In this document: in pieces, positions 45,323 through 45,955 of the stretch
How the letters are laid out: each line of letters starts with the position of its first letter
Numbering within the stretch: the stretch's first letter is position 1
DNA from: Eledone cirrhosa
Taxonomy: Eukaryota
DNA: 64,000 nucleotides
Assembly: GCA_964016885.1 (NCBI GenBank)
Contig: OZ024743.1
Location: forward strand, 175,832,001 to 175,896,000
Direction: 5' to 3'
Made by a program: the position numbers and the translations under genes
The notes under the pieces: generated by a model
What the model saw: only the letters and a program-made list of their open reading frames with translations
Told to the model about the DNA's origin: nothing
Database searches by the model: none

Positions 45323-45955
45323 TAATTAAGTTAAAAAAAAAAAAAAAAAAAAATGTACATCTACATATGCATACTGAAATACTAGTGTGTATATGAATAC
45401 ACACTAGTTTAAGCGTCAGTCATACAAAAGTGAGTTACAAACGAAGCGAAATTTAATTTCGTTTCGTTATTTGTTTTTATCGTCTCCGCTGAACCGGTGC
45501 GTACTCACACTCTATGCAAATTAGTCTGCCCACTACTAATTTTCATAGAAAAAGCATATAACGATATGTGCTTTTACAATTCTCCAGAAAGGCCGGTAGA
45601 TAGGTAAATATTGCTGATGAGTTGTAACAACAACGAAACTAGTTCAATATTCCTTGTCTGGCTTTCTGTAGAATAGAGGGAAGGTGTTCCCCCGAAAACC
45701 AGTATGACTCTAAAAACCGGTTTGTCTGTGTGTTTACATACAGAATAGCTGGGCTGCTCACTGTAAAGCAGCCAGTGAAAGACTTGGTACACCTACATAT
45801 GTATACGTGTGTGTATTCATATACACACTAGTATTTCAGTATGCATATGTAGATGTACATTTTTTTTTTTTTAACTTAATTGTTTAAGCGTCAGTCATAC
45901 AAAAGTGAGTTACAAACGAAGCGAAATTTAATTTCGTTTCGTTATTTGTTTTTAT
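45323..45955 (+). mobile_element. Retrozyme-like subfamily C, 475 bp monomer with inverted 5' piece and partial tandem; HHR 45607-45651
   Basis: 45407-45480 repeats at 45882-45955; 45323-45404 is the reverse complement of ~45807-45881; octamer 45514-45521. Confidence 0.82.
45607..45651 (+). ncRNA. Minimal type I hammerhead ribozyme, subfamily C
   Basis: aatattg CTGATGA GTTGT aaca ACAAC GAAA C ta G TT caatatt; perfect helices I and II. Confidence 0.9.

Follow-up and report, generated by a model that had tools for sequence, protein, structure and literature searches.

Covarying hammerhead ribozymes of short tandem repeats in Eledone cirrhosa, with a Penelope-type insertion footprint and a candidate U6-type promoter

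Hammerhead families and Penelope-like elements of the window

The stretch of DNA analysed here (the window, 64,000 nt) lies in a microsatellite-rich animal genome of 3.0 Gb, and a scan for the hammerhead core returns 23 hammerhead-like matches in it, several of them by chance. Hammerheads of three families, A, B and C, were placed together with the elements that carry them (Table 1). The family C hammerhead that an earlier note on this DNA had reported at 45607-45651 is found there as quoted, and the strings given in that note for A, B and C can all be located in the window. The Rfam model HH9 matches the C hammerhead at 45596-45667 (38.6 bits, E = 3e-6, below the gathering cutoff of 52); an Rfam search of four further loci gave no match, HH9 being the model of one specific subfamily. 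Rfam also returned microRNA matches, which were set aside as microsatellite or inverted-repeat artefacts. In the predicted distal extension of helix I, the first two pairs are 97% paired, one of them with both sides changed. The units that surround the ribozymes are homologous (A and B, 67% over 251 nt, E = 3e-14; A and C, 66% over 249 nt, E = 3e-8), and the C insertion of the window is a head-to-head pair whose arms share a 64-bp exact inverted match.

Table 1. Features placed in the window
Feature	Position	Strand	Remarks
Hydra-like Penelope element E	5180..8215	+	DKT and CxCX5C motifs; broken ORF; 66-nt tail; hammerheads at 5244, 5428 and 8084
Non-LTR retrotransposon ORF, broken	9197-11890	+	endonuclease-like and RT-like motifs; presumably RTE-like
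tRNA match	13138-13210	+	66.7 bits
Hydra-like Penelope element D	14929..17870	-	DKT motif; 68-nt tail
Neptune-like element	22120-26960	+	broken ORF; hammerheads at 22128 and 26842
Family A head-to-head insertion	27470..28620		ends approximate; one arm tailed, the other not; hammerhead cores at 28216 (+), 28129 (-) and 27653 (-)
Family A hammerhead	37177..37227	-	sixth A copy; core substitution
Family A hammerhead	38899..38949	-	core at 38938
Family B element	44240..44720	+	ends approximate; promoter motif 44366-44377; 3' tail
Family B hammerhead	44443..44493	+	decayed copy; core at 44454
Family C insertion, inverted second arm	45325..45404	-	5'-truncated; short end without tail, in (TA)n
Family C element, forward arm	45405..45953	+	a single unit of the 467-bp type with its 3' tail; ends in (TA)n
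Family C U6-like promoter candidate	45513..45562	+	12-nt motif 45513-45524; TATA-like box at 45557; by U6 geometry, start predicted near 45585-45587; function predicted
Family C helix I, predicted distal extension	45591..45666	+	past a 3-nt/1-nt internal loop; from fold
Family C type I hammerhead	45603..45653	+	helix I 45608-45613/45645-45650; helix II 45621-45625/45630-45634; helix III palindrome 45638-45643; core from 45614; GUU site, cut predicted after 45644
Family C tail	45882..45953	+	about 70 nt, between the family's two fixed 3' ends
Third Hydra-like element	48200-50400	-	hammerhead at 48421, helix III an AT palindrome
Family A hammerhead	52614..52664	-	core at 52653
Penelope-like element	61928-63943	+	broken ORF

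The Hydra-like assignment of Penelope-like elements rests on the DKT and CxCX5C motifs as described in PMC8557442, which reports the Hydra clade from aquatic invertebrates only. Pfam gave nothing informative on six pieces of Penelope ORFs; the Atlas leads for these ORFs were HTH_animal, GIY-YIG and RVT_1, and a homolog search returned 11 unnamed proteins. Terminal fragments of element D, about 75-150 bp long, are paired in (TA)n at 12630-12810, 14790-14965 and 59330-59460; they comprise little beyond the hammerhead, whose 4-bp helix III could fold as a monomer. The 3' region of the third Hydra-like element matches the C tail weakly (71% over 45 nt, E = 0.32).

Covariation of the stems and the helix III palindrome

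Stem sequences had been said to change between A, B and C while pairing was kept, and the pair counts bear this out in helices I and II: seven of ten pairs are changed on both sides among the three families and none on one side only (eight of ten once family G, a fourth family recognised in the genome-wide search described below, is added), and the 30 pairwise A/B/C comparisons over the ten pairs divide into 15 unchanged and 15 changed on both sides. Compensatory changes are found within families as well, from T-A to A-T in helix II of C and among G.U, U.G and A-U at one position of helix I in A. The core is also kept as claimed, in its CUGANGA and GAAA segments and in the NUH site. Pairing is not kept at the base of helix II (10.1-11.1), where G-C occurs only in C; the letters there are U.U in 40 of the 44 rows of A and in 11 of the 12 rows of G, and A.A in 28 of the 30 rows of B, each row being a variant at a locus, with overlapping loci possibly counted twice. 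In family B, helix I is 6 bp long and helix II 4 bp, exactly in the register of A and C; since helix II of other B copies pairs in that register, as GGGT/ACCC around a 4-nt loop, the reading AGG/CCT was out of register. In B helix I, the strand "cagtt" uses a private change of the window copy, which is some 85-89% like its relatives and carries private changes, the family form being ACAGTC/GATTGT. In C helix I, six of the proposed pairs hold; the seventh is a position of the internal loop, mostly U.U in A, B and G.

A structural alignment, which the earlier note had named as a check, shows the covariation in a gapless array of 16 natural variants, hand-picked out of 78 distinct ones. Pairing in it is 100% for the 6 bp of helix I and the 4 bp of helix II, with the open ends in helix I as in a type I hammerhead, both sides change in 12 of 16 pairs and 95.7% of cells are paired; its covariation score is 0.69, compared with 0.26 for shuffles (0 of 500 reach the observed value) and 0.04-0.15 for slid registers, controls that ignore relatedness in a sample of only three to four lineages. 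In a neutral star-tree simulation that starts from a paired ancestor, all 30 A/B/C pairs were kept in none of 200,000 runs at the observed divergence (mean, 19 of 30) and in 26 of 200,000 runs at lower divergence. Selection on ribozyme structure, as proposed, is well supported by the pair-count alignment and the simulation, and the stem covariation among A, B and C is real. The view that it reflects chance or an alignment artefact could draw on the three to four independent lineages, on the hand-picking of variants and on the one helix misregistered at first; it is effectively refuted by the gapless alignment, the slid-register controls and the neutral simulation. Covariation with a palindromic helix III has already been published for animal hammerhead families (PMC4209133), and the A/B/C covariation is a known property of animal hammerheads, ordinary when taken alone.

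Given the non-canonical pair at 10.1-11.1 of A, B and G and the GUU sites of B and most C copies, which cleave more slowly, hammerhead activity may be low; the usual G10.1-C11.1 pair, highly conserved though not obligatory, is found in C only. By sequence alignment, the UAW/U internal loop and the AAYR loop are conserved. Four contig runs of unrecorded type, in which ends do not show, give 34 variant places in the 467-nt C unit, one of them inside the Rfam span where about five would be expected, a weak deficit. The pair table leaves out ten G copies whose helix I has a 1-nt insertion, and locus L068, a pattern match without helix I, was dropped. Two arrays (L111 and L119; 22 units) have amplified a G variant in which the 3' strand of helix I is longer by a 1-nt insertion, so a bulged helix I is no bar to spread. 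Helix I and the internal loop of G resemble those of family B, and a mosaic origin is possible.

Helix III, which the earlier note had described as staying a palindrome, is self-complementary in at least 98.3% of the 56,788 matches of a genome-wide pattern search in which the two loop letters were left free (the reversed control gave 27). The palindrome itself was rightly seen but drawn too long, since the relevant unit is a 6-mer and the outer letters of the quoted 8-mers are A14 and N17 of the core. The loop letters are GC in 15,192 matches, the fourth family, G; they are TA or AT in at least 40,652 and anything else in at most 944, as derived with exclusion patterns that gave 15,620 and 15,708 matches. 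These counts are inherited from few master elements, and therefore the real evidence consists of the three palindromic states that the four families show and of the lack, in the genome-wide search, of any expanded family with a non-palindromic helix III at this spacing. Three palindromic states that lie two substitutions apart without an expanded intermediate argue for selection, with only two events to go by. When 600 kb of arbitrary DNA were scanned with a profile, 16 A/B/C hammerheads came up but no further family built in this way; an unrelated hammerhead family with a short non-palindromic helix III occurs in the same genome, with five matches in 600 kb. It is one of several further hammerhead families with a long helix II met among loci L091-L110 and L231-L270. 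In one C-type array (L125/L155/L156), with GUC sites, the palindrome is broken in 4 of 15 units without periodicity; a dimeric circle, at one time suggested by period-2 broken palindromes, was rejected when the 4 TC loops among all 15 units proved aperiodic.

In a monomer, helix III amounts to one pair around four letters, at +6.0 kcal/mol by nearest-neighbour energies, and its self-duplex is placed at -4.6 to -7.5 kcal/mol; a constrained dimer fold is predicted to be 16.6-19.5 kcal/mol more stable than two monomers. The nearest-neighbour energies, together with amphibian hammerheads built alike (PMC7229834), lead us to infer that cleavage would take place in dimers, through the helix III palindrome.

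Tandem units, insertion footprint and the Penelope link

Elsewhere in the genome, A, C and G form arrays of up to 31 units, with one hammerhead per unit and unit lengths of 467 bp in C (13 of 17 spacings), 422-538 bp in A and 310-312 bp in G. Family B was met only as single units, no B tandem with two hammerheads being seen, and it appears older than the others. GC content is 0.37 in the C unit and 0.32 in the A unit; the units are non-coding, with no ORF of 120 aa in C. Monomer units are predicted to fold strongly as circles (z = -3.8 to -8.1, 25 shuffles each), as is the linear C unit (z = -8.0). Families A, B and C are 53-74% alike, and the similarity of G to them is confined to the ribozyme. 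With their short tandem units bearing type I hammerheads, low GC, non-coding and self-paired, the A, C and G arrays have the sequence features of non-LTR retrozymes, and the parasitic repeats that the ribozymes mark, short and in tandem, number in the tens of thousands.

The insertions run at their 3' ends into (TA)n from two fixed sites; their 5' ends are scattered and their flanks are (TA)n microsatellites. In C, two clusters separated by about 70 nt hold 43 of the 44 3' ends, defining a tail of 69-74 nt, and tail lengths vary among families, at about 34, 45, 55-65 and 70 nt (45-70 nt in A/B/C). Many insertions consist of two head-to-head arms of which exactly one is tailed: 27 of 31 pairs are clean in this respect (G, 11 of 11; C, 9 of 10; A, 7 of 10), the remaining four have one end unclassified or partial, and none of the 31 has tail/tail or short/short ends. 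An inverted arm with a tail on one side has been described for Penelope-like elements (PMC8557442), and a one-sided tail, produced from two RT start sites, is reported as unique to them (PMC11167929). We infer a Penelope-type enzyme because this signature sits on retrozyme arrays. Element E has the same one-tailed, two-armed pattern, with its 66-nt tail, in six of six two-armed loci judged by eye.

The template that such an enzyme would have copied can be approached through the arrays themselves. Among 66 G units, those of one arm differ by 0.03%, those of opposite arms by 0.02% and those of separate loci by 0.66%; arrays hold as many as 14 near-identical units in both arms, which differ from the units at other loci. 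No 5' end lies at the cut site (+1 to +5) in 54 C, 26 G and, with two A references, 28 and 46 A ends, and no pile-up of 5' ends at the cut or the predicted start was seen in this sample, which is biased towards copies that retain a hammerhead. As read from these sequences, near-identical G arms and 5' ends that ignore the cut site would be expected of a circular template, and an uncut multimer would fit them too. Long C arrays share variants that are not periodic, and so they are more than plain copies of a single monomer circle; this points to local turnover at a later time or to multimeric templates. A template in the form of an uncut linear multimer, with the ribozyme retained as a protein-binding fold or a rare cutter, would accommodate the heterogeneous C arrays, the non-canonical base of helix II and the GUU sites, and it agrees with reports that hammerhead cleavage is dispensable for insertion of a Penelope element in vitro (PMC11167929) and that only one of nine Xenopus dimers was cleaved (10.64898/2026.07.22.740005). 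We nevertheless hold it to be improbable, given that the catalytic core letters and the palindrome are conserved in all four families and that the near-identical G units stand on both arms in locus-specific form.

The relation to Penelope-like elements could also be one of descent. The hammerhead of element D is that of family G at 26 of 28 nt (window 17828-17860 against G locus L120, E = 3e-6), some local turnover is evident in long C arrays, and a route by which repeats of this kind arise from Penelope pseudo-LTRs is discussed in 10.64898/2026.07.22.740005; the units might then be solo pseudo-LTRs or satellites spread by local unequal crossover, their covariation inherited from autonomous ancestors. 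This we consider very improbable, for the arrays are dispersed, are bounded by two fixed 3' ends and lie on both inverted arms, the A, B, C and G units have no Penelope ORF attached in the loci read, and compensatory changes occur within families too, in helix II of C and helix I of A. An ORF with RT and GIY-YIG is absent from the A/B/C/G units, and no extended sequence common to these units and to eight Penelope end regions of the window was found. Partner searches yielded one family only with a Hydra-like protein as query (the 150 best of 58,337 candidates scored) and, with a Neptune-like query, one readable 3' end in 30 loci and no partner. As a guess, the Hydra-like elements, with tails of 66-68 nt and (TA)n targets, are the best partner for A/B/C.

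Candidate promoter, proposed mechanism and known systems

Upstream of the core in A, B and C, by 81-101 nt, stands a 12-nt motif with an octamer, followed by a TATA-like box. The motif recurs at -77 to -79 in three types of U6 promoter (among the seven displayed of ten fetched U6 loci), is displaced by an insertion in two U6 loci, and is present in the best U6atac match; it is absent from the other seven U6atac matches, which look like retrocopies, and from seven U2 upstream regions. If one mismatch is allowed, the upstream regions contain it in 28 of 30 cases for B, 50 of 57 for C and 35 of 53 for A, and in none of 24 for family G; its five exact matches in 200 kb of arbitrary DNA all lie in A/B/C-type elements. 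From motif to TATA the distance is 43-44 nt in the elements compared with 47-49 nt in U6 and U6atac; the box lies at a constant distance from the motif, a pyrimidine-purine step follows 29-30 nt past it, and by U6 geometry transcription would start 45-58 nt ahead of the cut. The motif is also part of a predicted RNA hairpin, and four contig runs place two minor variants inside the motif. On these sequence features, motif and box form a candidate U6-type (type 3 Pol III) promoter. Tandem U6 genes lie near 31.8 Mb (G000:C19) at a spacing of about 1.8 kb, some with promoters interrupted by insertions (L137, L140), and tandem U2 genes near 307.4 Mb (G000:C3) at about 2.2 kb.

The elements, selected and Penelope-mobilised as above, might instead owe all their transcription to host promoters upstream, by read-through, with the U6-like motif retained as an RNA hairpin or left as a relic. 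The spacing to the TATA-like box, 4-5 nt shorter than in U6, the position of the motif in a hairpin arm and the success of the young family G without it all suit this alternative, as do the runs of 4-6 T inside each unit, which would stop much Pol III read-through, T-runs being what ends Pol III transcripts. Read-through has moreover been proposed for animal retrozymes (PMC7761336). Against it, the sequence of the motif arm is conserved across three families while its pairing partner varies, the motif matches U6 and U6atac and not U2, and the TATA-like box keeps its constant distance, with the pyrimidine-purine step 29-30 nt further on; we regard exclusive read-through as rather unlikely.

For these units we think it probable that transcription from a U6-like promoter, self-cleavage as dimers, the formation of RNA circles and copying back into (TA)n by a Penelope-like RT follow one another. 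Such a cycle would begin from the tandem units observed (467 bp in C, 422-538 bp in A, 310 bp in G, one hammerhead each). In A, B and C, with odds we put only a little above even, the motif and TATA box of one unit would start a transcript 45-58 nt before the next cut; a promoter inside the unit would be kept because read-through with two cuts retains it, where an ordinary SINE would lose an upstream promoter. One pair around a 4-nt palindromic loop being too weak alone, two neighbouring ribozymes would quite likely pair their palindromes into a shared 6-bp helix and then cut. Cleavage as dimers would need a multimeric transcript and would spare the monomer circle, into which a host ligase would probably have closed the monomer, as published for other retrozymes. 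Very probably, a Penelope-type protein would then nick both strands at (TA)n and start at two internal sites 34-70 nt apart; rolling round the template, it would leave two head-to-head arrays, one of them tailed. In its most specific form, this makes A, B and C circular-RNA parasites with a captured host U6-type promoter, kept in the circle by dimer-gated cleavage, and with a Hydra-clade Penelope rolling from two starts, a reading that we offer tentatively and give somewhat less than an even chance. Should it be true, the junctions would be genomic footprints of the enzyme class that mobilises animal retrozymes, with its starts mapped to the base.

Which enzyme spreads animal retrozymes and how they are transcribed are left open in PMC7229834, PMC7761336 and 10.64898/2026.07.22.740005. 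The Penelope tail signature of the retrozyme arrays, mapped to two positions in each family, bears on the first question; the candidate promoter predicts a start site, and both footprint and promoter are testable by existing assays. Four families with different stems also offer a natural panel for dimer-dependent cleavage. In the literature searched, with few subscription papers and no repeat databases, none was found that describes these families, a U6-type retrozyme promoter or retrozyme tails. The class of element, the non-LTR retrozyme, is already known; the insertion footprint and the promoter candidate are less expected.

The repeats resemble the metazoan non-LTR retrozymes of coral, mussel and axolotl (PMC7229834) in their short, low-GC, non-coding, strongly self-paired tandem units with a type I hammerhead each and in their co-occurrence with Penelope-like elements, although at 420-540 bp the A and C units lie at or above the 150-450 bp reported there. 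In helix III they follow the dimer type of amphibians, and not the monomer cleavage described for most invertebrate retrozymes (PMC7229834): axolotl HHR_Amex1 likewise has a one-pair helix III and a palindromic tetraloop that needs dimers, and it cleaves far better as a dimer (PMC7229834), and axolotl HHR_Amex2 shares the U.U at the base of helix II. Animal retrozymes seem, on the account of PMC7761336, to be without promoters or motifs that indicate a partner, in contrast to the promoter-like motif and Penelope tail found here. For newt satellite 2, an internal promoter of snRNA type has been reported (cited in PMC2220036) and assigned to Pol II, whereas the present motif matches the Pol III-type U6 and U6atac and not U2. 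The truncated inverted arm, the tail at one end, the (TA)n target and the hammerhead are shared with the Hydra clade of Penelope-like elements (PMC8557442) and with Poseidon PAc (PMC11167929), from whose published descriptions A, B, C and G differ in lacking an ORF, in hammerheads of extended canonical form and in arrays of up to 31 units; the A/B/C tails, at 45-70 nt, exceed the 30-40 nt reported as usual for Penelope-like elements and match the 66-68 nt of the local Hydra-like ones. A Xenopus preprint (10.64898/2026.07.22.740005) likewise regards animal retrozymes as non-autonomous partners of Penelope-like elements, on the evidence of co-occurrence and pseudo-LTR homology in 35 species, no mollusc among them; it leaves the mechanism open, and its main text contains no junction or promoter analysis. 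There the link is co-occurrence and pseudo-LTR homology; here it is the insertion footprint, no extended pseudo-LTR homology having been found.
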